DNA from: Eikenella longinqua
Lineage (GTDB): Bacteria; Pseudomonadota; Gammaproteobacteria; Burkholderiales; Neisseriaceae
Length of the DNA stretch: 32,000 bases
Direction: 5' to 3'
Assembly: GCF_001648355.1 (NCBI RefSeq)
Contig: NZ_LXSL01000017.1
Span: forward strand, 1-32,000
The notes below the pieces were generated by a model. The model saw only the letters and a list, made by a program, of their open reading frames with translations. It was not told where the DNA came from and did not search any database. Positions 2,022 to 26,697 of this stretch are shown one piece after another. Position numbers and translations under genes: made by a program. Position 1 is the first letter of the stretch. Every line of letters begins with the position of its first letter.

Positions 2022-2033
2022 TTCAGGCAGCCT
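2022..2033 (-). repeat. Variant DUS (TTCAGGCAGCCT, reverse complement AGGCTGCCTGAA; one base differs from the local dialect)
   Basis: 12-mer read in the sequence. It abuts the zot stop codon (2033-2035). Confidence 0.6.
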
Positions 2034-3026
2034 TATTGCGCCATCGTGCCCTTAGTTTCTGCGTGTGCCATGGTAGGTTTAGCCGGGCTGTCCAAAGTCA
2101 GCACGCTGGCACCGCCTTCGCCGCTGTAGCTGCCCTGCGGCAGGTTGTCGGCAGTTTCCTGCCGGGCTTTGTAAGGGTTGTAAATGCCGTTTTCAACGTA
2201 GCTCCGGCATTGGGTATCGGGTACGGCCACAGGTGTGGCCTGTTCGGTGTAGCAGGTACAGCCACTATCGCTTTGGATACAGGCGACGGGATAGGGCATG
2301 GTTTGGATATTGCGGTTGTGGCCGTTGTAGATGGGAGCTGTCCACGGCTGGCCGTCTATGGCGGGCTGCCAATCTTCGGATTTCAGGTTGTTATCGGGCG
2401 GCTGTTGTACGGTAGCCGGTTGTTCGGCATAGCTGCCTGTTGCCGGATATTGGCCATTTGCCTGTTGTGGGTAGTTTTGCGGCTGCTGCTGATATTGTTC
2501 GACCTGTTGCGCTTGGGCTTGTTCGGGGTGGATTTTGCGCTGATAGCTTGCCCAAACGTAACTCATCAAATAGCCGACAATCACAATGATAACGGGGAGG
2601 GCGTAAACCCACGCGCTGACCGAGCCTTTAAGTTTGGTGTGTTCGCTGGCAGATTTGTACATGCCGAACACGCTTTTTTTCGGCAGAAAGATGCTGTTTT
2701 TGGCTTCGGCCACGTCTGCCCGGGCTTCGGGGTTGGCGCAACGCTGCCAGTAGGAGACACGGCGCAGGCCCAGCATGGTGCGGCTGATGTTGCGGTGTTC
2801 GCCAATCAGGCTTCTTAGATGGACGTCAATTAACCGCGGGTGTTGCGTAAGCACAAAAATATCAATGCCTTTATGGCGATGCGTTTCCAGAGCTTGGATA
2901 TAGTCGGGTACTTTCGCCCCGGCAGGCCGCGGGCGAAAGACCCTTTGCGCTTCGTCAATGACGAGTATCGAACCATCGGGCGCCCATTGGTGCCACGTTT
3001 CCATGCTTTCGCCTTCGGGTAACCAC
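2033..3026 (-). pseudogene. zot: Zonula occludens toxin-like phage assembly ATPase (pI/Zot family), 5'-truncated with the P-loop region missing
   Basis: ORF 2033..3370 (-). The segment WLPEGESMETWHQWAPDGSILVIDEAQRVFRPRPAGAKVPDYIQALETHRHKGIDIFVLTQHPRLIDVHLRSLIGEH matches the Walker-B/central region of Zot-like proteins. It is followed by a TM helix (WVYALPVIIVIVGYLMSYVW) and a Q/P-rich C-terminal domain. There is no GxxGxGK[ST] P-loop anywhere upstream. The first ~110 codons of the listed ORF are antisense to the AAA+ gene and are not Zot-like. Confidence 0.75.
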
Positions 3027-4079
3027 CTGCTCGAAAGCAATGCTGTGCCGATGGTGTGGATTTCCAACCATGTCGGCTGCATGGATGACGCCTTCCTGCG
3101 CCGCTTCGACATCGTACTGCATATGCCTGATTTGCCAGTGCAGCACAAAGCAGGCCTAATTCGCACCCTATCCGGCGGGCGGCTAGATGAAACACAGATT
3201 AATGCGTTATCCAAACAAGACGGCCTGACCCCGGCCGTACTGGAACGCGGTTTCAAAGTGGCTGCTGAGCTGGGAGGTAACCGAAAAGCCTTTGCTGGCC
3301 ATGCCGTTGCCCTATTCAACCAGACACTAAAGGCACAAGGTCGGCGGCCAATCAATCTACCCTCAGCCATACGTGCCGCCTACTCTTTAGACTGGATTGC
3401 CTGCGATAGCGACATACATGCTGTCAGCAAAGGCCTAATTACACATAAAAAAGGCCGCATTTGCTGTTACGGTGCGCCCGGAACAGGCAAAACTGCCCGG
3501 GCAAACTGGCTCGGCGAGCAGGCCGGACTCCCCATTTTGCTGCGCCAGGGCTCGGATTTGCTCGGATCATACGTCGGCGAAACCGAAAAAAATATCGCCG
3601 CCGCTTTCGAACAGGCCAAAGAGCAGGAAATGCTACTGGTGCTGGACGAAGTGGACAGCTTCCTATTCGCCCGCAACGGAGCCGATCGAAGCTGGGAGCG
3701 CAGCATGGTCAACGAAATGCTCACCCAGATCGAGCGCTTTGAGGGCCTCTTGATTGTCTCCACCAATCTGATGCACAGCCTCGATCCAGCTGCTCTTCGT
3801 CGCTTCGATCTGAAACTGCATTTCGGCTATCTCACCCCGCAACAGGTTATCGATCTAGCACAAGAGCAAGCTTCCCTTCTGGGTTTGCCACCCCTCAGCA
3901 CAATCGAGCAAGGCTACCTGAAAATCCTAAGCAACCTCACTCCCGGTGACTTTGCCGCTGCCGCCAGAAGGCATCACTTCGCACCATTTGCCAACACAGC
4001 TGCTTGGATGGCCGCCCTGCAGAGCGAATGCGCCCTCAAACCCGACGGCATACCGAACCGCATCGGCTTCGTTGCCTAA
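3027..4079 (+). CDS. AAA+ ATPase (classical AAA clade). It is the remnant of a two-module protein: the 5' part is deleted and the second AAA module is intact.
   Basis: ORF 2958..4079. The complete module has Walker A GAPGTGKT, Walker B LLVLDEVD, sensor-1 VSTN and LDPAALRRFD. Upstream, only the tail of an earlier module survives (VWISNHVGCMDDAFLRRFD), with no Walker A or B. The ATG at 2958 lies in zot-antisense sequence, so a chimeric N-terminus is possible. The gene contains an exact DUS at 3911-3922. Confidence 0.7.
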   Translation: MLESNAVPMVWISNHVGCMDDAFLRRFDIVLHMPDLPVQHKAGLIRTLSGGRLDETQINALSKQDGLTPAVLERGFKVAAELGGNRKAFAGHAVALFNQTLKAQGRRPINLPSAIRAAYSLDWIACDSDIHAVSKGLITHKKGRICCYGAPGTGKTARANWLGEQAGLPILLRQGSDLLGSYVGETEKNIAAAFEQAKEQEMLLVLDEVDSFLFARNGADRSWERSMVNEMLTQIERFEGLLIVSTNLMHSLDPAALRRFDLKLHFGYLTPQQVIDLAQEQASLLGLPPLSTIEQGYLKILSNLTPGDFAAAARRHHFAPFANTAAWMAALQSECALKPDGIPNRIGFVA

Positions 4080-4112
4080 TGTTTGTTTTACTGTCATGCA
4101 GGAGCAAGCACC

Positions 4113-4937
4113 ATGCTTAAAGAACCAATCCAACAGGCCGCCGCCTATATCCGCCGTGCCGACGCCCTCATCATTACCGCCGGGGCTGGTATCGGCATCG
4201 ATTCCGGTCTGCCCGACTTCCGCGGTATCGACGGCTTCTGGCGTGCTTTTCCACCGCTACGCCGTTGGGGCAAAAACTTCCAAAACATGGCCACCCCAGC
4301 CCTATTCCGTACCGACCCGCATCTGGCCTGGGGCTTCTATGGCTGGCGGCTCAACAGCTACCGCCAGACCGAGCCGCATCAAGGCTTCCATCTCCTAAAA
4401 CAATGGGCCGACAGCAAGGAGCACGGTGCCTTCATTTTTACCAGCAATGTGGACGGCCAATTCCAAAAAGCCGGCTTTCCCGACAACCGCATCATAGCCT
4501 GCCACGGCAGCATCCACGATTTACAATGCACCGGCCACTGCCATGACCAAACTTGGCCAGCCGACAGCTTCGTGCCGCAGGTAGATGAACAGACCTGCCG
4601 ACTGCAAAACAGCCTGCCAGTTTGTCCGCAATGTGGTGCTCTCGCTCGCCCCAACATCCTAATGTTTGACGATTGGGAATGGCTGGAAGAACCAACCATG
4701 ACGCGGCTTCGCCAGTTTAAACAATGGCTACCTGAAATCCGCTGCCCCGTGATCATCGAAATCGGTGCCGGCTCCGCCATCCCCACCGTGCGCCGCTTCT
4801 CCGACCGTACCGCCCGCCATCTGCATGCTCCGCTAATCCGCATCAATCCCGATGAAGCTCAAGTCGGCCAAGAACATCATGTTGGGCTGGCGATGGGAGC
4901 GTTAGCAGCGCTACGAGAATGTGCTCGTTTTTTATGA
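4113..4937 (+). CDS. SIR2-family (sirtuin) NAD-dependent protein deacylase / ADP-ribosyltransferase-like protein
   Basis: ORF 4083..4937. The ATG at 4113 is preceded by AGGAG (4100-4104). Motifs seen: GAGIGIDSGLPDFRGIDGFW (sirtuin GAGxSxxSGIPDFR motif), TSNVDG, catalytic His in ACHGS, and Zn-ribbon cysteines CTGHC...CPQC. The gene starts 33 nt after the AAA+ stop. Confidence 0.85.
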   Translation: MLKEPIQQAAAYIRRADALIITAGAGIGIDSGLPDFRGIDGFWRAFPPLRRWGKNFQNMATPALFRTDPHLAWGFYGWRLNSYRQTEPHQGFHLLKQWADSKEHGAFIFTSNVDGQFQKAGFPDNRIIACHGSIHDLQCTGHCHDQTWPADSFVPQVDEQTCRLQNSLPVCPQCGALARPNILMFDDWEWLEEPTMTRLRQFKQWLPEIRCPVIIEIGAGSAIPTVRRFSDRTARHLHAPLIRINPDEAQVGQEHHVGLAMGALAALRECARFL

Positions 4938-5005
4938 CGTGGTAAGCAGCAGACACGGCTTCAGAAAAGAGCGATCAAACTAACATTAATTCATATTATT
5001 TGATA

Positions 5006-5011
5006 TATAAT
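5006..5011 (+). promoter_or_regulatory. Candidate -10 hexamer (TATAAT) upstream of the AT-rich gene pair
   Basis: TATAAT lies within TGATATATAATTTTT, 29 nt upstream of the ATG at 5040. There is no convincing -35. The surrounding DNA is AT-rich, so chance matches are likely. Confidence 0.25.
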
Positions 5012-5039
5012 TTTTCTTACTTATCGAAAGGTTAAAACG

Positions 5040-5927
5040 ATGAAACTTATTTTTTCACGTAAAGGCTTTGATAGTTCGGCTGGTGGTATACCAAGCCCCA
5101 TCCTACCCGATGGAAGAATGATCTCCCTACCCATACCGGCCAACCCGTACGACAAGAAAACCTTGCATGACGTTTATCTAGACGGCGTTGATATTCATCA
5201 AATGGTTGATGATTTATCCGGCGGAAAGGCCCCGGAACACATACATTTAGATCCGGAACTCAGGCGGCATCCACGACAAACACCTTCCGATTGGCGACCT
5301 GCATTCGGGCAGGTAAATGCCGCGCAAACCCATTTAAACAACCATCAAGTTGGCATAGGTGATGTTTTCCTATTTTTTGGCTGGTTTAAAGAAGTAGAGC
5401 TATCCTCAACAGGACGATGGCAATATAAAAAAACTGCCCCTGATATTCAAGTCATGTTTGGCTGGCTTGAAATTGGAGAAATTTTCAACACCATTAAAGA
5501 TAGGATGCAAGCACTATCAAAGTATCCTTGGCTTATTGAACACCCACATTTTAATCAAGAAAATTACAAACATCCTAGCAATACAGTTTATCTCGCCAAA
5601 GATAAATCAGTATATTCGGATCAATTATCATATGGTGGCGGGATATTCCCATCTTTTTCTCCTGCTTTACAATTAACAAAAACCGGAATGAGCCGCAGTA
5701 TTTGGCAACTGCCAAAATGGTTCTATCCAGTTGATGGTCATGCCTTGTCATATCATTCAAATCTGGATTGCTGGAAATGCTCCGATGACCCTAAATATAT
5801 TATACTCCATAGCGCCAAACGAGGGCAAGAATTTATTATTGATAGCGCATACTATCCCCAGTTGGAAAACTGGCTTGCCAGTGTTATCAAAAACCATGCT
5901 AGCACTATTAAGGATTCTGAACAATGA
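5040..5927 (+). CDS. Uncharacterised 295-aa protein, first gene of the AT-rich pair (possibly Nmad3-like; unverified recollection)
   Basis: The ORF starts with ATG and has AAAGG about 10 nt upstream. Sample lines give about 30-38% GC. Its stop overlaps the next start (ATGA 5924-5927). N-terminal motif: IFSRKGFDSSAGGIPSPILPDGRMISLPIP. A later motif is IGDVFLFFGWF. I see no signal peptide, TM segment or P-loop. Confidence 0.8.
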   Translation: MKLIFSRKGFDSSAGGIPSPILPDGRMISLPIPANPYDKKTLHDVYLDGVDIHQMVDDLSGGKAPEHIHLDPELRRHPRQTPSDWRPAFGQVNAAQTHLNNHQVGIGDVFLFFGWFKEVELSSTGRWQYKKTAPDIQVMFGWLEIGEIFNTIKDRMQALSKYPWLIEHPHFNQENYKHPSNTVYLAKDKSVYSDQLSYGGGIFPSFSPALQLTKTGMSRSIWQLPKWFYPVDGHALSYHSNLDCWKCSDDPKYIILHSAKRGQEFIIDSAYYPQLENWLASVIKNHASTIKDSEQ

Positions 5928-6568
5928 AATTAGAACTTAGCAGTAATAATCGCCTTTATACCTACAAAGTTGCCTATGATTCTGGAACTGCTCCAAATCC
6001 CGATTTCAATACTTGTACATTAGCTATCTGTAAACCGGCAATACGGCGGACAGCTAAAGTTGGTGATATTATTGTCGGCTTTGATTGCCTTGAAAATCAG
6101 GATCGTATCATCTACTGCATGCAGGTTGATGAGGTTTTAACATGGTCAGAATATGTTGCACGTTGTGAGATAGATCAATCCCTAAACGGGAAGATTCCAA
6201 AAAATCAAAATGATGCGGGAGACTGCATATGGGTAGAAGAACGATTTGAGAGCTACGAGCCGCTGCCTTCATGGTCTTGGCACGGTCGAGACGAATTTTA
6301 TTCAGATGTATTAACAGGGAAAAATGTATTATTAGGCAAAAAATTCTGGTATTTCGGCAAAGGAGATAAGTATGAAATTCGCTTACCTGAAAAATTGCTC
6401 AATATTATCCCTAACCGCGGGCATCGTTCTAATTCCAATGATGAATATAAAGAGGCATTCATTACTTTCTTTAATATGATCTTGGATAAAGAAAAAATCC
6501 CTCTCGGAAAAAACGGCACACCTAAAAATGCTCCAAAAAACCAAACTGAACAGAAAAAATGCTCCTAA
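5924..6568 (+). CDS. Uncharacterised 214-aa protein, second gene of the AT-rich pair (possibly Nmad2-like; unverified recollection)
   Basis: ATG at 5924 with AAGGA 9 nt upstream. Motifs: YKVAYDSGTAPNPDFNTCTLAICKPAIRRTAKVGDIIVGF. The C-terminal tail is Lys-rich. It is translationally coupled to the upstream gene. Confidence 0.8.
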   Translation: MKLELSSNNRLYTYKVAYDSGTAPNPDFNTCTLAICKPAIRRTAKVGDIIVGFDCLENQDRIIYCMQVDEVLTWSEYVARCEIDQSLNGKIPKNQNDAGDCIWVEERFESYEPLPSWSWHGRDEFYSDVLTGKNVLLGKKFWYFGKGDKYEIRLPEKLLNIIPNRGHRSNSNDEYKEAFITFFNMILDKEKIPLGKNGTPKNAPKNQTEQKKCS

Positions 6569-6618
6569 CTCCCAAGCTATTCTAATGAGAAGAAACAGAC
6601 TAAACAAAAAGGATTTTC

Positions 6619-7362
6619 GTGCTTCAACTCGCCTACTTCCAAATGGCCGGCGCCGGCAAAACGCGCAATCAGGATGCCCTATTTGATGGCACGGCAGTAA
6701 GGCAAGTACGGCTGCACAAAACTCGTTTGTCCGAAACAGCCGATACTGTTCGGCTGGCGGTCGCCGACGGTGTATTCAACAGCCCGGCCGCACACCTGGC
6801 CAGCCGTTTTTGGATGGAAGCCTTTGCTCGCGAAGGCGATGCCGAAGGCCGTTTCCTACGGCGGCTGCACGGCAGCTTTTGTGATCAACTGGCAACTGCA
6901 TATTTCGGCTCAGCCTCCACCTTTGCTTCGGCAATAGTCGAAGCAAACGGTTTATGCCGTATCTGCAATGTTGGCGATAGCCGCGTTTATCATATATCCG
7001 CCAACGGCTGCTGGCGGTAAGTAAGCCATGATCACACCGTATTAGCCGATTTGATTGAACAAGGAGAAGCACAGCCAGGCACAGACTATGCTGGGATTTA
7101 CTACGCATTGGCACATTGCCTGACAGCGGATTATGAAGAAACCCTTTTTAAAATATACACCGCCTCCTTCACTCTGCTAAGAAACGAAACCGTTCTGGTT
7201 TGTTCCGATGGTTTGCACGATGCGCTATCTCATCACCAATTAGAAGAATTGTGGCGTGCTTACCATTCTTTGCCCGATAGGCTGGAAGCCTTACGCCGTA
7301 CAGTAAAACGGGTTCCCTTTCATGATGACTGTTCGGTGGCAGCATGCCTGCTGCAAGGTTAG
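6619..7362 (+). pseudogene. PP2C-family (PPM) Ser/Thr phosphatase interrupted by one in-frame TAA at 7018-7020
   Basis: ORFs 6619..7020 and 7051..7362 are in the same frame. Reading through the stop gives ...GDSRVYHISANGCWR*VSHDHTVLADLIEQG.... PPM motifs seen in order: TRNQDA, AVADGV, GDSRVY, SHDHT, VCSDGLHDAL and HDDCSV. The GTG at 6619 has AAGGA 6 nt upstream; an alternative ATG lies at 6643. Confidence 0.75.
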
Positions 7363-7454
7363 TTTCCACCGGTACCGTGTTGCACACCTTTTCCTTGAAG
7401 CCTAAAATGGTAACGTCATTCTGTTTTCCCATTTTCAGTGAAAAGGAGCAAATC

Positions 7455-7772
7455 ATGCCTGATATTACTTTACCTCGTGATTGGGTATGCAACGGTAGGG
7501 AGTTGAAACCAAGAAGTGGCGGTACATCTAGAGAAACTTGGATTTTCGATGGCAGGGAAATCAAACCCAAAATCGGTGGAACATCAAGGGATACCTGGCT
7601 TTTTGATGGTCGGGAGCTAAAACCCAAAATCGGCGGTACTTCCCGTGATGTATGGGTAATTGATCGAGATAAATTAAAACCCAAAATTGGCGGCAGCAGC
7701 AAAGATACCTATGATCTAAATGGCGAGCCAATTCTGGTGGCATTTGCCCAATTGATTTTGAAGCTGTGGTGA
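7455..7772 (+). CDS. Small 105-aa protein made of four tandem 19-aa repeats (consensus GRELKPKIGGTSRDTWxFD) plus a hydrophobic tail
   Basis: Lies within ORF 7344..7772. The ATG at 7455 is preceded by AAGGAG (7444-7449). The repeats are seen directly in the translation. I vaguely recall a RefSeq name '4-fold beta flower protein' for small four-repeat proteins; this is unverified. Confidence 0.75.
   Translation: MPDITLPRDWVCNGRELKPRSGGTSRETWIFDGREIKPKIGGTSRDTWLFDGRELKPKIGGTSRDVWVIDRDKLKPKIGGSSKDTYDLNGEPILVAFAQLILKLW
7494..7721 (+). repeat. Four tandem 57-bp coding repeats (7494-7550, 7551-7607, 7608-7664, 7665-7721)
   Basis: The repeat units are conserved at the protein level but use different synonymous codons. 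For GGTSR they read ggc ggt aca tct aga, then ggt gga aca tca agg, then ggc ggt act tcc cgt. Confidence 0.85.
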
Positions 7773-7882
7773 CCCTTTGAAACGATAGTGGCTTGACACT
7801 CTTTCGATATAAGGAGAGCAAGCTGCCTGCAGTACAAGTAATGCGGCAAAATACAGCAACAGAGAAAGTTACGTTACGATAA

Positions 7883-7920
7883 AAGCCGAATCCCATTGGA
7901 ACAGGATTCGGCTTTATTTA
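7883..7920. terminator. Bidirectional rho-independent terminator between the convergent repeat-protein and ompA-family genes
   Basis: A perfect 11-bp stem AAGCCGAATCC (7883-7893) / GGATTCGGCTT (7904-7914) with a 10-nt loop. It is followed by TTTATTTA on the plus strand and flanked by AAAA on the other side. Confidence 0.65.
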
Positions 7921-7942
7921 TGCAACATCATTATGCGGCCAG

Positions 7943-7954
7943 AGGCTACCTGAA
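7943..7954 (+). repeat. Single DUS (AGGCTACCTGAA, exact); first DUS after a 3.2-kb DUS-free stretch
   Basis: Exact 12-mer read in the sequence. Confidence 0.8.
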
Positions 7955-8594: not shown

Positions 8595-11500
8595 TTATTT
8601 CCAGGTGTACTTGAAGCCGACGCTGCCGCGGTAGCCTTGGCGGCTGGCGCTGCCGAAGTTGTGCTGGTAGCGGGCGTCGCCGTACAGGTAGGCGTTGTTG
8701 GACACGGGCAGCTGGCCGCCGATGCCGACTTCGCCCCAGGTGGCGTTGCGTTTTTCGCGCACGTTGTCTTCACCGATGTCCACGCCGTGCGGGTTGATGA
8801 AGTCGTGCCACACGTTGGCCACGGCGTAGAAGGTGTTGGTGCGCAGGTTTCTGCTGGGGCCGTTGTAGGCAAGGCGTGCGCCGAGGCGGCCGCGTAGGCT
8901 GTGCTGTTTATCCTGGCTCACTTGGCGGATGCCGTCGTTGAAGTCTTTCAGGCCAACGTATTGGTACACCAGCTGCGCCTGCGGCTCGATTAGCCAGCCG
9001 CCTTGGTTTTCGGCACGGCTACCGAGGGCGAAGGGGCGGCCGACTTCGGCAGAAAGGGCGGCTGCCCAGCCGTTTTGTTTCACGCTGGCGCTGTCGCGGC
9101 CTTGGTATTTGTTGCGCAACCAGCTCAGCTGGCCCACCAAGTCAAGATAGCTGCCGTTGGCGGCATAGTTGGTGTTGCTCAGGCCGAGGCTGACGGCGTC
9201 GGTGGTGCCTTTGCCGCTGTAGTGGTCGGCGCTCAGCACACCGTTGACGGCGCGGTAGCGGTCGTAGAAGTCGGTGTCGGCACGGCTGTAGGCCAGGTAG
9301 CCGCCAGTGAGGCGGTGGCCGCCTTTGTCGTTGCGGCTAACGGCGAAGTCGTGGCCGATTTGGAAACCGCCCATTTTGGTTTCGAAGTTGAGGCGCTCTT
9401 TGCCGTCGCTCTCCAGGCGGCTGCCCAGGATGCGGGTCCAGGTTTGGCCTTTGGCCTGCTCGCCGCAGCGGCCGCAGTCGTCCCAAGCGAGGGTTTGGTT
9501 CTCGCCGCGACGCTCATGCAGGGTGCCGAGGGTGTGGTGGCCGATTTCCTGGTTTACCTGCGGCATCAGCACATCGCCGGCCACGGCGGGGGCATAGATG
9601 TATGCCGAGGGGTTGGGGGCGTTAGGGTCGGCAAACAGCGTCCAGGCATACACGTTTTTGCCGCCGGCAGTGCTCTTCAACACCAACTGGGCTTGTCCGG
9701 CATTAGTAGTATTAGCGGTGCCGGTGAAGATGGCATTGTCGTCGGGCTGGCCTTCTTGCTGGGCGGGTGCGTTGGGCTGCGGCTGTTCAACCGTAACCAC
9801 ATCAGACGAGAACTGCTGGGCCCGGCTGCGGACAATGTTGCCGATGATGCCGTTGGGTGTGCTGACGGTGGTGGTGCCGGTGGCCGTGCCTTTGATGATC
9901 AGGTGGTCGGAATCCTGGTCGCTGGCACTGTTCCACAGGGTGTTCACCACCAATTGGCCATTATTGCCGGCGTAGTTGCCGTTTACCGTGATGGTTTTGT
10001 AGTTGCCTGCTGCGGCAGTGGCGGGGGCAACGAAGGCAACCGTGCCGGCGTTATCCAAGTTGGTTACGGTGGAGTTGCCGGTGTTGTTCCAGGTGGTGCC
10101 GTTGTCGAGCTCCACGGCAGACGTGCCTGCCGCCAGCGACATCGCGCCGTTCAGGGTTGCGCCGTTGGTTACCGTCAGCGAGTTGGTGCCGGATACGGAG
10201 TTGAACACGTTGGTGCTGCCGGTTACGGTGCCGCCGTTGATATTGATGGAGTTGCTGCCGCCATTGGCTTGCAGGGCGTTGCCATTCACTTTCACGGTGG
10301 CGTTGTTCAGCACGGCTTTGCCGCCGTTGAGCGTTTGCACGCCGGTGCTGCCGGCACCGTTCAGGTTGAGGCTACCTGAAAATTCTACGGTGGCACCGTT
10401 CTGCGCGGTGTAGCCGGTTGTGCCGGCCGCGCCGGTGGTGGTGTTCAGGGCGGAAAGCAATTTGGTGGTGTTCACGGGGCTGCTGCCGGCCACCAATTGG
10501 TTGTTCAAACCGTAGCTTCTGCCGTCGGCTTTACCGATGGTGACGCCGGTGGCGCTGTCGGCTACGGTGGCCGTGCCTGACAGGCTGCTTTCCGCACCGC
10601 CGGACACCAAGGCGACGGTTGAGCCGTTACCGGTCAGATTGAAGGTGCCGTTGTTTACCGTGATATTGGAGGTTTTGCTGGCAGCGGTATCCCGGCCGTT
10701 GCTGGCCAAAATAACGGCGTCTTTGCCGGAAGCGGTAACGTTCAGGCTGGCAGCATTAATCGAGCCGCCTTCATCCGCACGGAACAGGGTGGAGTTTTCG
10801 GTGGTGATGTCGGTGCTATTGGTTAAGGCTGCCACAGTGGCCGAAGCAGAGCCGCCGTTCACATGGTAGGCAATCTGGTTTTTTGCGCCGGCAGAGTTGT
10901 CGAACACGGTTTGCGTACCCGCATTCACGGCCATGACCGAATTGCCGCGTGCGTGCGCACCAATTACGTTGTCGCCTTTCAGCGTCAGCGTGCCGTCGGT
11001 CACCACTTCGGCTTTACCTGTGCCGCGACCATCGGCATAAATGCCGTAGTTGCGGGTAACTTGGTTGGCAGAAGCTTCTTCCACCGTGATTTTGCTGCTG
11101 GCGGTGTTGGTGATTTTGGCTGTGCGCCCCGCTTCGGCCACCACATTTTCGCCCACGGCATTGGTGCCGGTTACGTTAATTGCGCCGGCATTGGTGATTT
11201 TGGCCGCATCGGAGTTTTGCGCCTGGATGCCAACGTTCTGTTTCGGCTGACCACTGGCTACTGTAGCGTTACCTGACACGTTGATCACGCTGTCCGCACC
11301 CAAATTTACCGTGGTCGAGGCGTTGCCGTTGCTCACCCTAACAGCAGTTGCACCTTGGGTTTCCTTGCCGATGGTAATGATGCCGTTGTGGTTGACTTGG
11401 GCAGCATTTCCAATCACATTGATGCCTGTTTCTGCCGAGGTGTTGGCAATCAATGTAGTAGTAGCAGTTTTACTGTACTGTGCGGTTCGCCCGATATAAA

Positions 11501-13082
11501 TTTCACTACCCTTTTCTCCGATGAATGTGCCATTAGTGCCAGCATATACCCCATCTACACTACTACTTGGCGCATTATTGACACCAACATTAATAACCCC
11601 TCCAGTTTTATTAGCAATAACAGCATGATCCTTAACGATAATGCCATAATTAGGATGGGTATAATTAGGAAAAGTGTATCCTGCCACATTAATAATGCCA
11701 GAGTTCTCAAATTTTCCTGAGTCCTTGGCAATAACGGTATCTGCTTCAGAATAATATGCATTTCCACCAGGCGTGCTGCCACGGGTATCATATTCCTCAC
11801 CTGCATAATAACCTCCTGATATAACACCATAATTTTCTGCAACACTGCCTGCCCCACGTACCGTAACACTATTAAAGTGCCCTGATAATGAAGCACCTTC
11901 CTCCACCACCGCTTTACCACCATTCTCAGCCAGCATCCCTCCTCCATTTGATTCGAAATTTCCTGAACCAAAACTTACACGATGCTCTAAGATGGCACCA
12001 TTTTTTAAGGTAGCAGTCGAGCCTGTTCCCGTAGCAGCCATAATCCACCGTTCAGGTGTTGGTTTTAAAGAATCCGGGTGGTTGGTTCCCGTATTATTTT
12101 TAGTGAGAATAACCTTTTCCGTAGTAGTTGCCTCGTTATACCGACGGTTGTAGGCTGCTTGTTGTGTTTCCCCATCATTGGCAAATCCCGGTTGGCCGAC
12201 AGCCGCTTTTAAAGCCTCATTAAAAGCCTGCAAATCAGCAATGCTATTGATGTTATAGCTGGTTCCCAGCAAATTTACCGTTTTAGGAGCCAGCACCCAG
12301 AACGTACGGGAGGTACTTGTTTCCCCAATGAGCATTCCTTCAAAATTAATACGATTTTTAGAAACCCATGCTACGGCACCACCATTTTCTGCCTGAACCA
12401 TACGGGTTTGTTTTGCAGGAAGCTGACTTGGCGGAGTATTGACATTTTTTGAGGGCGCTTGCGTGCTGTCACCCAAGTTGGCAATCAGCATGCTGCCATT
12501 ACCATTGGCTGTACCCAAACGCATATTGACATAAGCATCATTTCCGGTCGGAACAGAAATGGTTGTATCGCCAACCGTTTGCCCTTGGATATTGTTATAA
12601 ACATTGACCGTCTGATGACTGCCGCTAGCTGGGTCTATTACCGTAACTGTTGTACCTTGTTGGTTGGAAATAATCCGTTCGCGTGCCAAATCATTTGCTA
12701 TCCCTGGATCGCTAAAAATATCCTTCGCTGCTTTTGAAATAGTGGATGGACTGTTAGTAGTCAATTGATTGTTCAGGGAGGCAGCGGTTAATGTAACCGT
12801 ATCGCCGCCGGTAACCAGCACCTGTCCCCTGTTATCATCGTTGGTGGAAACTGTATATATCCCCATATCGCAGCTGCCGCCGCTGGCCACGGTACTGCCG
12901 TTGCCGCAAGTAGAAGCCGTCGCCGGCAGGGCGGATACGCCGATGCCCACCACGGCAACAAAAGCCAGCAGTTTGGCAGCCGAGGGGCCGGAAGATTTCT
13001 TCCGGCTGGCGCGTTCCAGTTCCGAGCAAACCACCCAAGTGCTTTGTTCTTCAGAATAAACGATGTTATAAATTTTGTTCAT
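8595..13082 (-). CDS. Type Va (classical) autotransporter, 1495 aa: extended signal peptide, beta-helical passenger, C-terminal beta-barrel
   Basis: The N-terminus MNKIYNIVYSEEQSTWVVCSELERASRKK matches the ESPR motif (MNKIY...W.VSEL). The passenger is long and G/T/N/A-rich with repeats. The C-terminal ~280 aa are barrel-like, with alternating aromatic/hydrophobic residues, ending ...YRGSVGFKYTWK. Confidence 0.9.
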   Translation of the reverse strand: MNKIYNIVYSEEQSTWVVCSELERASRKKSSGPSAAKLLAFVAVVGIGVSALPATASTCGNGSTVASGGSCDMGIYTVSTNDDNRGQVLVTGGDTVTLTAASLNNQLTTNSPSTISKAAKDIFSDPGIANDLARERIISNQQGTTVTVIDPASGSHQTVNVYNNIQGQTVGDTTISVPTGNDAYVNMRLGTANGNGSMLIANLGDSTQAPSKNVNTPPSQLPAKQTRMVQAENGGAVAWVSKNRINFEGMLIGETSTSRTFWVLAPKTVNLLGTSYNINSIADLQAFNEALKAAVGQPGFANDGETQQAAYNRRYNEATTTEKVILTKNNTGTNHPDSLKPTPERWIMAATGTGSTATLKNGAILEHRVSFGSGNFESNGGGMLAENGGKAVVEEGASLSGHFNSVTVRGAGSVAENYGVISGGYYAGEEYDTRGSTPGGNAYYSEADTVIAKDSGKFENSGIINVAGYTFPNYTHPNYGIIVKDHAVIANKTGGVINVGVNNAPSSSVDGVYAGTNGTFIGEKGSEIYIGRTAQYSKTATTTLIANTSAETGINVIGNAAQVNHNGIITIGKETQGATAVRVSNGNASTTVNLGADSVINVSGNATVASGQPKQNVGIQAQNSDAAKITNAGAINVTGTNAVGENVVAEAGRTAKITNTASSKITVEEASANQVTRNYGIYADGRGTGKAEVVTDGTLTLKGDNVIGAHARGNSVMAVNAGTQTVFDNSAGAKNQIAYHVNGGSASATVAALTNSTDITTENSTLFRADEGGSINAASLNVTASGKDAVILASNGRDTAASKTSNITVNNGTFNLTGNGSTVALVSGGAESSLSGTATVADSATGVTIGKADGRSYGLNNQLVAGSSPVNTTKLLSALNTTTGAAGTTGYTAQNGATVEFSGSLNLNGAGSTGVQTLNGGKAVLNNATVKVNGNALQANGGSNSININGGTVTGSTNVFNSVSGTNSLTVTNGATLNGAMSLAAGTSAVELDNGTTWNNTGNSTVTNLDNAGTVAFVAPATAAAGNYKTITVNGNYAGNNGQLVVNTLWNSASDQDSDHLIIKGTATGTTTVSTPNGIIGNIVRSRAQQFSSDVVTVEQPQPNAPAQQEGQPDDNAIFTGTANTTNAGQAQLVLKSTAGGKNVYAWTLFADPNAPNPSAYIYAPAVAGDVLMPQVNQEIGHHTLGTLHERRGENQTLAWDDCGRCGEQAKGQTWTRILGSRLESDGKERLNFETKMGGFQIGHDFAVSRNDKGGHRLTGGYLAYSRADTDFYDRYRAVNGVLSADHYSGKGTTDAVSLGLSNTNYAANGSYLDLVGQLSWLRNKYQGRDSASVKQNGWAAALSAEVGRPFALGSRAENQGGWLIEPQAQLVYQYVGLKDFNDGIRQVSQDKQHSLRGRLGARLAYNGPSRNLRTNTFYAVANVWHDFINPHGVDIGEDNVREKRNATWGEVGIGGQLPVSNNAYLYGDARYQHNFGSASRQGYRGSVGFKYTWK

Positions 13083-25989: not shown

Positions 25990-26017
25990 GCCTTCACACC
26001 GTTGCAACATCCCAAAA

Positions 26018-26058
26018 AGGCTACCTGAAAATGTTTCAAACCATTTTTCAGGTAGCCT
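26018..26058. terminator. Inverted DUS pair hairpin downstream of ribF; left edge of the AT-rich islet
   Basis: Exact 12-mers at 26018-26029 and 26047-26058. Confidence 0.65.
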
Positions 26059-26175
26059 TTTTGTGTTTTCATCTTTCCCCTTAACATTATCTAGCAAATA
26101 TTAAGGATGCTTTAACTTTTATATCAGCCATGCTATGCTTTTGGCTCATCTTAATTAACTATAGTGGAGATAATC

Positions 26176-26697
26176 ATGAGAAGCCAAGAAGAAATCCAAC
26201 AGATGCTGACAGACTGTGGTGCTATAGACTTTTTTGGAACAAAAAAAGAAGTAAAAGAACTTCCTAACATCATACATGATGATGAAATAATTACTTATGC
26301 AACATCAGGTTTATTGGATGGAAATACATGGTTGATTGTTTCTACTAATAAGCGAGTCATTTTCTTAGATAAAGGCATGATATTTGGGTTAAAACAAGTA
26401 GAAATACCATTAGAAAAAATTAATTCAATAAGCTATAAAAAAGGACTTCTGCTAGGCGAAATTGATATCTGGGACGGTGCTTCTCGTATGGGAATAACTG
26501 GCGTCACGAAACAGACACTGGTTCCGTTTGTAAATGCAGTAAATAAGGCTAAGGAAGAATTAGCTAACTTACACTCCCAACCTGTTTCTTCTCATTTATC
26601 TACCGCTGATGAGATCTTAAAATTCAAGAATCTGCTGGATCAGGGGATACTGACCCAAGAGGAATTTGATAAAAAGAAAAAAGAATTGCTTGGCTAA
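26176..26697 (+). CDS. Bacterial PH-like (YokE-like) domain protein with a C-terminal SHOCT domain
   Basis: Lies within ORF 26164..26697. The ATG at 26176 is preceded by GGAG. The segment ...IITYATSGLLDGNTWLIVSTNKRVIFLDKG...INSISYKKGLLLGEIDIW is bPH-like. The C-terminal ADEILKFKNLLDQGILTQEEFDKKKKELLG is a typical SHOCT motif. The gene is strongly AT-rich. Confidence 0.8.
   Translation: MRSQEEIQQMLTDCGAIDFFGTKKEVKELPNIIHDDEIITYATSGLLDGNTWLIVSTNKRVIFLDKGMIFGLKQVEIPLEKINSISYKKGLLLGEIDIWDGASRMGITGVTKQTLVPFVNAVNKAKEELANLHSQPVSSHLSTADEILKFKNLLDQGILTQEEFDKKKKELLG

Follow-up and report, generated by a model that had tools for sequence, protein, structure and literature searches.

Nmad3- and Nmad2-family genes of Eikenella longinqua belong to a horizontally acquired seven-gene island, of which they may be the exchangeable cargo

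The closest described setting for one of the genes treated here is DS-4 ("NTTI"), a validated anti-phage system of Escherichia coli from DefensePredictor, which consists of a thymidylate-synthase-like protein, a deoxynucleoside monophosphate (dNMP) kinase, a 5-hydroxymethyldeoxyuridine (5-hmdU) DNA kinase-like protein, a TIR protein and Nmad2 (PMC13092281). The validation, the only experimental link for either family treated here, concerns the system; Nmad2, its fifth gene, was not assayed individually (PMC13092281). Pfam names PF18754 (Nmad3) and PF18753 (Nmad2) "nucleotide modification associated domains"; neither has a model in NCBIfam, PADLOC 2.0 or PHROGs, and no description of them that could be retrieved includes the gene context reported below. 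Here, we analyze an Nmad3-Nmad2 pair in the first 32,000 nucleotides of contig NZ_LXSL01000017.1 of Eikenella longinqua (assembly GCF_001648355.1), a stretch that we refer to as the window. The Nmad3-family gene (5040-5927, + strand, 295 amino acids (aa)) and the Nmad2-family gene (5924-6568, + strand, 214 aa) are both intact, the start of the latter sharing an ATGA (5924-5927) with the stop of the former. A sequence-only reading had proposed exactly these two coupled open reading frames (ORFs), and the Shine-Dalgarno sites it pointed to are present as AAGG/AAGGA-type motifs upstream of both. The resemblance to Nmad3 and Nmad2 that it offered proved right, as the first product matches PF18754 with an E-value of 8e-70 (235.7 bits, gathering threshold 27, profile positions 1-247 of 247) and the second matches PF18753 with an E-value of 1.4e-35 (123 bits, gathering threshold 26.1, profile positions 2-186 of 200). 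Judged by these profiles, the two proteins are ordinary, full-length and high-scoring members of known, uncharacterised families, with no difference at the family level. The window Nmad2 has the same sequence as an Eikenella longinqua protein in NCBI (100% identity), and its identity to the Nmad2 of DS-4 is 31% (E 3e-17).

Comparison with related genomes revealed that the co-inherited unit spans 3017-7770 and is thus larger than the pair (5040-6568). In blastn alignments, positions 3017-7770 are colinear with a locus of Eikenella glucosivorans (L180, 84.6% nucleotide identity) and positions 3013-7770 with a metagenome contig (L095, 79.4%), and the flanks are unrelated in both cases. In these two relatives the island is intact and encodes a WYL protein (325 aa), a double-AAA ATPase (689-702 aa), a SIR2 protein (274 aa), Nmad3 (295 aa), Nmad2 (214 aa), a PP2C-type phosphatase (250 aa) and a repeat protein (105 aa); the E. 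glucosivorans copy, from strain S3360 (JACSGR010000001.1), occupies positions 7890-14793 of L180. Its 3' part, the sub-cassette Nmad3-Nmad2-PP2C-repeat protein (5035-7770, + strand), also occurs alone elsewhere: L083, L096 and L097 carry it at 78.5% nucleotide identity between fabH and plsX, next to an IS1595 fragment. In one relative with this cassette, Nmad3 is 86% identical to the window protein and PP2C measures 245 aa. The earlier proposal of a horizontally acquired two-component module therefore holds as to the acquisition, which is borne out by composition, by a gap in DNA uptake sequences (DUS), by the different flanks in E. glucosivorans and by the second site of the sub-cassette. It does not hold as to the module, which is not self-contained here and forms part of the seven-gene island. 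Likewise, the AAA, SIR2 and PP2C genes, which had been taken for a neighbourhood of the conflict type, do provide such a context and are actually co-inherited members of one island.

The island occurs in Neisseriaceae and Pasteurellaceae, and its genes are found in other orders in Lonepinella and in a metagenome, at chromosomal sites that are unrelated. The order is WYL-AAA-Nmad2-Nmad3-SIR2-x-PP2C in L186 and WYL-Nmad2-Nmad3-OGFr_N-PP2C-double AAA in Lonepinella (L094), with orthology across the rearranged islands reflected in identities of 55-58% for AAA, 38-44% for PP2C and 47-49% for SIR2. The OGFr_N protein of Lonepinella (L094 9675-10172; PF04664, E 4e-13) is found in the position of the Eikenella SIR2. 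This domain is known mainly from the opioid growth factor receptors of animals, and we know of no bacterial role for it. No DNA-level counterpart of the cassette was found in E. coli. PADLOC 2.0 has no model for the island and, given the intact form, recognizes nothing beyond the generic cores of WYL and AAA, and the literature searched yielded no paper joining WYL, SIR2 and PP2C in bacteria and none naming Nmad2 or Nmad3. In the databases and literature searched, the seven-gene architecture and its rearrangements thus appear to be undescribed, as do the cargo swap and the compositional offset considered next.

In Haemophilus influenzae, a well-studied pathogen, the loci L183-L185 carry a backbone of WYL, SIR2, PP2C and double AAA, 35-58% identical to the window proteins, and their slot lacks Nmad genes. 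It holds instead a GmrSD_N+DUF7834 gene and a complete GmrSD_N+GmrSD_C gene, both of the type IV restriction family. The same H. influenzae islands also bear an NT5C+SIR2 gene and a Fic/RhuM gene (PADLOC PDC-S23). AT content peaks in the slot genes at every locus, their GC lying 10-16 points under that of the backbone, an offset that fits cassette exchange. Genes typical of genetic conflicts adjoin several copies: HigBA and Fic in L094, a polyvalent Zeta/ART/MuF protein in L090/L187, the IS1595 fragment in L083 and, at the window island, a filamentous-prophage remnant; the intact islands add their WYL regulator. The island looks like an anti-phage or anti-mobile-DNA system. Among the readings weighed here we favour, tentatively and short of even confidence, that the Nmad pair is an exchangeable, nucleotide- or nucleic-acid-recognizing cargo of a mobile, WYL-regulated conflict island, in which it would act together with the sirtuin, the Cdc48-like ATPase and PP2C. 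In such a scheme, the WYL protein would repress the operon until infection or DNA damage. Nmad3 and Nmad2, acting jointly and sometimes fused, would then form a PUA-like module that recognizes or chemically processes a non-canonical nucleotide or base, either a modified base or an adduct derived from NAD or ADP-ribose. Coupled to the AAA unfoldase and to a sirtuin that consumes NAD, this activity would block the phage or mobile element, and PP2C would reset a phospho-switch. Points in favour of the cargo reading are the co-inheritance of the block, its recurrence in several gene orders, the GmrSD genes and low GC of the slot, purifying selection on all genes, adjacency and fusion of the pair, the PUA-like character of the weak structural hits, and the association with NAD- or ADP-ribose-related domains in three independent contexts.

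We examined how often the two genes occur together, using 80 Nmad3 loci from species-representative genomes and 83 Nmad2 loci, 80 of them from a metagenome scan and the remainder being L092-L094. Nmad2 lies directly adjacent to Nmad3 on the same strand, in either order, at about 24 of the 80 Nmad3 loci (one of them a fusion), and Nmad3 is next door at only 13 of the 83 Nmad2 loci. Fusions of Nmad3 with Nmad2 are represented by P0118 (511 aa) and L078. Because both gene orders and fusions are seen, yet most copies stand alone, the linkage is real but facultative, with both genes being more often solo. The pairing put forward by the sequence-only reading is therefore upheld in part: many homologues are not linked, and those that are recur in both orders and as fused proteins. 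Neither BLAST clustering of the neighbours nor a Pfam and PADLOC scan of 126 co-directional operon partners revealed a third partner of Nmad3 across phyla besides Nmad2. Sorted by Pfam, the 126 partners spread over 112 families, each represented at most twice, and the PADLOC scan returned four "mad2" matches.

Several individual loci deserve mention. In Steroidobacteraceae and Nevskiales, a gene of 200-229 aa lies directly 3' of Nmad3 (L002 1361-1960, L006 8831-9517, L011 8861-9514). It was considered as a divergent Nmad2 and rejected, given that it has no Pfam hit and that the L011 protein, the only one compared, reached an hhalign probability of 0.7%; it has no PADLOC match in any of the three loci and may be an alternative partner. 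DUF2779 and WYL genes adjoin Nmad3 in L022 (Propionivibrio) and L034 (Polaromonas). The Polaromonas locus also contains Nmad2, with SIR2-like and HDAC-like genes upstream, and the Propionivibrio locus looks like an integrative element with DnaB, a tubulin/FtsZ-like protein and a DnaA-like ATPase. Damaged Nmad genes were noted in L097 (990-1852), L106 (10600-11459) and L186 (11269-11858), where Nmad3 is split into two ORFs or the called Nmad2 is missing 65 residues at its N-terminus; the cause is either repeated pseudogenisation or an error of assembly. As regards phages, tblastn against 50,697 phage records and a search of PHROGs retrieved no homologue of Nmad3 or Nmad2, and just 5 of 2.9 million viral contigs in IMG/VR carry one. 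With the BFVD search equally negative or nearly so, a phage origin of the two families was rejected.

The Nmad3 family is very large, with 5,686 clusters among the candidates scored, and the window protein shares 44-53% identity with members from Burkholderia, Cupriavidus, cyanobacteria, Chloroflexi, Acidobacteria and one archaeal metagenome-assembled genome. An alignment of 47 sequences has 46 invariant columns, among them S6, R7, K8, G9, D11, H69, D71, Q91, Q96, H170, N181, Y184, R219, Q263 and E264; the alignment includes the window protein, in which these residues are thus present by construction. For Nmad2, 48 sequences share Y14, D19, G21, P24, C31, C36, K37, P38, R41, D100, H120, D128 and H167. 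The window proteins carry the corresponding family motifs, SRKGFDS...PSP in Nmad3 and CTLAICKP in Nmad2, and the latter string, which had been singled out from the sequence, is indeed the family signature, its C31, C36, K37 and P38 being invariant. The constellation of invariant Cys, His and Asp residues looks catalytic or ligand-binding.

These properties bear on the main rival explanation, according to which Nmad3 and Nmad2 are a pair of nucleoside- or nucleotide-metabolizing enzymes, serving in the salvage or detoxification of a modified nucleoside or nucleotide and working as a small-molecule hydrolase or lyase, with an island context that is incidental or regulatory. A model for such a function is YqfB, an ASCH-fold N4-acetylcytidine amidohydrolase. 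Very strong conservation across phyla and the many invariant His, Asp, Glu, Arg, Lys and Cys residues of both families speak for it, as do the solo occurrence of most members in metabolic neighbourhoods (e.g. folP, aldolases, aminotransferases), their near-absence from phages and viral contigs, low ratios of nonsynonymous to synonymous substitution (dN/dS) and weak structural hits that include catalytic ASCH proteins. Moreover, the SIR2, HDAC-like and Macro partners are all de-acylating or ADP-ribose-processing enzymes. However, core metabolism is not expected to show the patchy distribution, foreign composition, site mobility and repeated pseudogenisation seen here, and a salvage enzyme would not readily account for the tight, rearranging linkage to WYL, the Cdc48-like ATPase and PP2C. 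In addition, Nmad2 genes receive defensive scores from DefensePredictor, and a validated system includes one of them (PMC13092281). Overall, we consider an enzyme pair of this kind rather unlikely, and the two further roles discussed below, as a writer of modifications or as substrate adaptors, less likely still.

Structural modeling provided a first, provisional view of the fold. The AlphaFold2 models of Nmad3 (pLDDT 93.1, pTM 0.92) and Nmad2 (pLDDT 91.9, pTM 0.89) retrieved nothing significant when searched with Foldseek against the PDB and BFVD, the best E-values being 0.06 (Nmad2) and 0.12 (Nmad3) in the PDB and 0.009 in BFVD, with TM-scores of at most 0.5. Nearly all named weak hits of both models nevertheless belong to the PUA-like barrel superfamily, namely ASCH (ZmASCH), EVE (THYN1, PH1033, MJECL36), YTH, the ATP-sulfurylase N-domain and viral ASCH/EVE/DUF3850 proteins. 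Single-sequence and profile searches of PDB sequences detected no relative with a solved structure. The helix-"GD"-beta-hairpin element, already noticed in both proteins from the sequence, would by the secondary structure of the models be typical of a PUA-like fold, and it is probable, if unproven, that Nmad3 and Nmad2 are both divergent PUA-like barrels. The suggestion that the two are distant paralogues was not supported. As BLASTP (E = 4) and profile-profile alignment (hhalign probability 0.2%, N-termini unaligned) were negative, paralogy was rejected as a demonstrable claim. The N-terminal motif described as common to both shrinks to the Asp, a Gly close by and P-x-P when conservation within each family is required. 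In Nmad2, Y18 and S20 are not maintained across the family, and the motif pattern given previously is off by one residue for this protein.

PUA-like folds bind flipped-out bases, a property that would suit a second rival, in which the pair acts as a self-modification writer, installing a base modification on host DNA or RNA that marks self or alters nucleic-acid metabolism. The Pfam family names point in the same direction, and DS-4 places Nmad2 beside homologues of phage thymidine-hypermodification enzymes. Against such an activity, the island and its relatives contain no kinase, pyrophosphorylase, TGT/DpdA-like transferase, glycosyltransferase or methyltransferase partner and no cognate restriction component, and phages, the usual home of hypermodification pathways, lack both families. 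We regard a writer function as improbable.

The backbone proteins of the window island were characterized with the help of their intact orthologues. The Cdc48/VCP-like double-AAA gene (3017-4079, + strand) is a 5'-truncated pseudogene, for which the listed ORF (373 aa) starts at 2958. Its product matches residues 338-689 of the 689-aa E. glucosivorans protein with 85% identity, and because its counterpart in the Lonepinella protein of 696 aa is the stretch of residues 346-686 (55% identity), it represents the 3' half of the gene. The intact double AAA has a full-length match (E 2e-137) to the prophage ATPase family phrog_10401, and its closest PDB relatives are VCP-like ATPase and Cdc48; an IMG/VR scan with a single AAA protein found nothing. 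The sirtuin gene of the SIR2 family (4083-4937, + strand, likely true start near 4113; Pfam SIR2 E 1.6e-20) is intact, and its product is 91% identical to the E. glucosivorans orthologue. The closest PDB relatives of this protein are Sir2-Af1, SIRT5, a macro-sirtuin fusion and the ADP-ribosylating SirTM, and the PADLOC SIR2 models matched neither the window protein nor that of L095. Downstream of the Nmad pair, the gene for the PP2C-type phosphatase (6619-7362, + strand) is a nonsense allele with an in-frame TAA at 7018-7020 (codon 134). The two resulting parts (6619-7020 and 7051-7362) are colinear with intact orthologues of 245-250 aa at 81-84% identity, in which Gln occupies the position of the stop codon; the same stop is found in Logan assembly L001, possibly from the same reads. 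Intact forms match Pfam PP2C_2 and weakly resemble bacterial Ser/Thr phosphatases. The last island gene (7455-7772, + strand) encodes the repeat protein of 105 aa with four repeats of about 19 residues (GRELKPKxGGTSRDTW), 94% identical to its E. glucosivorans orthologue and with no family match in Pfam, PHROGs and PADLOC scans. It is always last and 3' of PP2C, as in L180 (14476-14793), L095 (6702-7019), L083 (8101-8361), L096 and L097.

The presence of these partners raises a third rival, namely that the beta-barrel Nmad proteins are substrate adaptors that deliver protein or nucleoprotein to the Cdc48-like ATPase, with the sirtuin and PP2C as post-translational regulators; the island would then remodel proteins and not be a nucleotide system. 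A model is Lon, whose PUA-like N-domain delivers substrate, and the recurrent linkage with a Cdc48/VCP-like double AAA, a protein-deacylase-type sirtuin and a Ser/Thr-phosphatase-type PP2C would fit. However, the pair is widespread without an AAA gene, and the sub-cassette lacks one as well. Furthermore, the structural hits are nucleic-acid readers and not Lon-N, and the invariant Cys/His/Asp constellation has the appearance of a catalytic or ligand-binding site. An adaptor role seems to us very improbable.

In the window, the island is a decaying remnant. Its left breakpoint (3013-3017), given by the limits of the blastn blocks versus L095 and L180, lies inside the AAA gene. Here, a 5'-truncated Zot-like gene of the filamentous-prophage remnant (2033-3370, - strand; phrog_197 E 2e-57, only from profile position 83) and the AAA gene, both minus their 5' ends, abut head to head at about 3013-3017. 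The arrangement identifies this junction as the apparent scar of a deletion or rearrangement that removed WYL and half of AAA, the losses amounting to the WYL gene and the first ~336 AAA codons. We estimated dN/dS by the Nei-Gojobori method between the window and E. glucosivorans and obtained 0.031 for the repeat protein, the lowest of the island, 0.050 for Nmad2, 0.106 for Nmad3, 0.11 for SIR2, 0.141 for PP2C and 0.14 for AAA. All island genes have thus evolved under purifying selection. PP2C reaches only 0.073 between intact copies, and both damaged genes lie at about twice the value of intact pairs; as these ratios are all low and no more than about twofold raised, the damage must be recent. 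The Nmad proteins are 91% (Nmad3) and 89% (Nmad2) identical to their E. glucosivorans orthologues, and their genes show no sign of decay at the sequence level. The system as a whole is probably inactive in this genome, with the two Nmad genes staying intact.

The composition of the pair agrees with a foreign origin. GC content is 0.416 for the Nmad3 gene and 0.381 for the Nmad2 gene versus 0.603 in the housekeeping part of the window (8000-32000), in keeping with the AT-richness noted originally, and the three 500-nt bins across 5001-6500 have values of 0.428, 0.382 and 0.384. This is the longest AT-rich stretch, though not, as had been stated, the most AT-rich one, for the lowest 500-nt bin is 26001-26500 (GC 0.334). 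That bin holds a bPH_3 and SHOCT gene (26164-26697, + strand, 177 aa), probably a further small insert of foreign origin. For DNA uptake the host uses the Eikenella dialect, the AG-eikDUS 12-mer AGGCTACCTGAA, of which the window has 42 full copies. The reported DUS-free gap of 3.2 kb was reproduced, the 10-mer core being absent from 4728-7944, and is the longest in the window; a second one of 2.9 kb falls within the autotransporter gene. The first 8 kb of the window hold only 4 DUS core copies. Many AG-eikDUS form close inverted pairs (e.g. 13401/13426, 14749/14775, 19400/19420, 24942/24960), which look like terminator hairpins 3' of genes. In the autotransporter gene (8595-13082, - strand, 1,495 aa), GC dips to 0.43 at 11501-12000 with strongly negative GC skew, which may mark a mosaic passenger-domain segment. 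In scans for promoters and terminators, the counts did not stand out clearly from those of shuffled controls, the sole notable feature being a weak hairpin with a T-run at 4913-4937, 3' of SIR2.

Returning to the reading of the Nmad pair as exchangeable cargo of a conflict island, several observations weigh against it. The substitution in H. influenzae could simply reflect a hot spot of insertion beside the backbone. In other phyla, Nmad3 and Nmad2 are mostly solo among ordinary metabolic genes and have no conserved partner, and the conservation of Nmad3 (44-53% identity across phyla) appears unusually high for an immune gene. Pfam and PADLOC scans found no nuclease domain in any gene of the Eikenella-type island, so that by its gene content no nuclease or other recognized effector accompanies the pair. 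The SIR2 protein resembles, in sequence, true deacylase or ADP-ribosylating sirtuins and not the NADase SIR2s of known defence systems. The PUA-like fold class of the models is provisional, because no Foldseek hit was significant. Two steps of the argument, from a co-inherited island to an immune system and from a PUA-like fold to the recognition of a non-canonical base or ADP-ribose adduct, are ones that we infer.

A more far-reaching version of the cargo reading seems doubtful to us. Neisseriaceae and Pasteurellaceae would then have a modular immune system, not described so far, with the pair as its sensing or catalytic core. In it, a WYL-controlled Cdc48-like/SirTM-like/PP2C backbone would carry swappable Nmad or GmrSD cassettes that detect non-canonical nucleic-acid chemistry, and the Nmad proteins would represent a new class of PUA-like enzymes whose substrates are modified or ADP-ribose-linked nucleotides. 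Should the island prove to be an immune system, its sirtuin/Cdc48-like/PP2C architecture would be an addition to the means of defence of commensals and pathogens from the human mouth and airways, and it might bring to light a new enzyme chemistry, directed at nucleotides and built on a PUA-like scaffold. Both Nmad2 and Nmad3 are large, functionally uncharacterised families, one of which, Nmad2, has newly been seen in a validated E. coli defence system with its role unassigned. The intact, clonable island of E. glucosivorans and the natural GmrSD cargo swap in H. influenzae offer a testable framework for Nmad function. The finding is humbler where the window is concerned, its own copy being a decaying remnant.

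When compared with known systems, the island shares partial features with several of them. Phage thymidine-hypermodification clusters (5-HMUDK, aGPT-Pplase, Nmad5-type) differ from it in that no such neighbours exist at the island and phage carriage of the Nmad families is nearly nil. The ASCH enzymes YqfB and ZmASCH are among the best structural matches to Nmad2 (TM-score at most 0.47 on the target) and are, like Nmad2 in build, small stand-alone beta-barrels, acting on modified nucleosides or RNA. They show no sequence or profile similarity to Nmad2, and the Nmad2 signature (Cys-x4-Cys-Lys-Pro, His, His) differs from what we take to be the ASCH catalytic residues. The SIR2 defence systems (Thoeris ThsA, DSR1/2, SIR2-HerA, SPARSA) and IetAS likewise combine SIR2 and an oligomeric ATPase in a mobile island. 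However, the island SIR2 fits no PADLOC SIR2 model, and the SLOG/TIR, HerA and pAgo partners of Thoeris, DSR, SIR2-HerA and SPARSA were not found. The AAA core resembles IetA (PADLOC E ~1e-32), whereas the Cdc48-like double AAA scores 87.6 bits against a cut-off of 510 with NCBIfam NF042959 (IteA_antiphage), and an IetS protease gene is lacking.

As for type IV modification-dependent restriction, represented by EVE/SRA/YTH/ASCH-nuclease fusions, the Nmad models are weakly similar, below significance, to the PUA-like reader fold. In contrast to such fusions, the Nmad proteins have no fused or neighbouring nuclease, GmrSD_C being found only in the Nmad-less H. influenzae variant, and the type IV readers lack the catalytic-looking invariant residues that the Nmad proteins carry. 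Members of the GmrSD family nonetheless fill the very slot in H. influenzae that the Nmad pair fills in Eikenella. For DS-4, the other four genes are absent from the island by Pfam, and DS-4 itself has no Nmad3, PP2C, AAA or WYL. Common to both is an NAD-consuming domain beside Nmad2, TIR in DS-4 and SIR2 in the island. Including the Macro-Nmad2-Nmad3 arrangement of an oral metagenome, Nmad2 thus stands next to an NAD- or ADP-ribose-related domain in three independent contexts.

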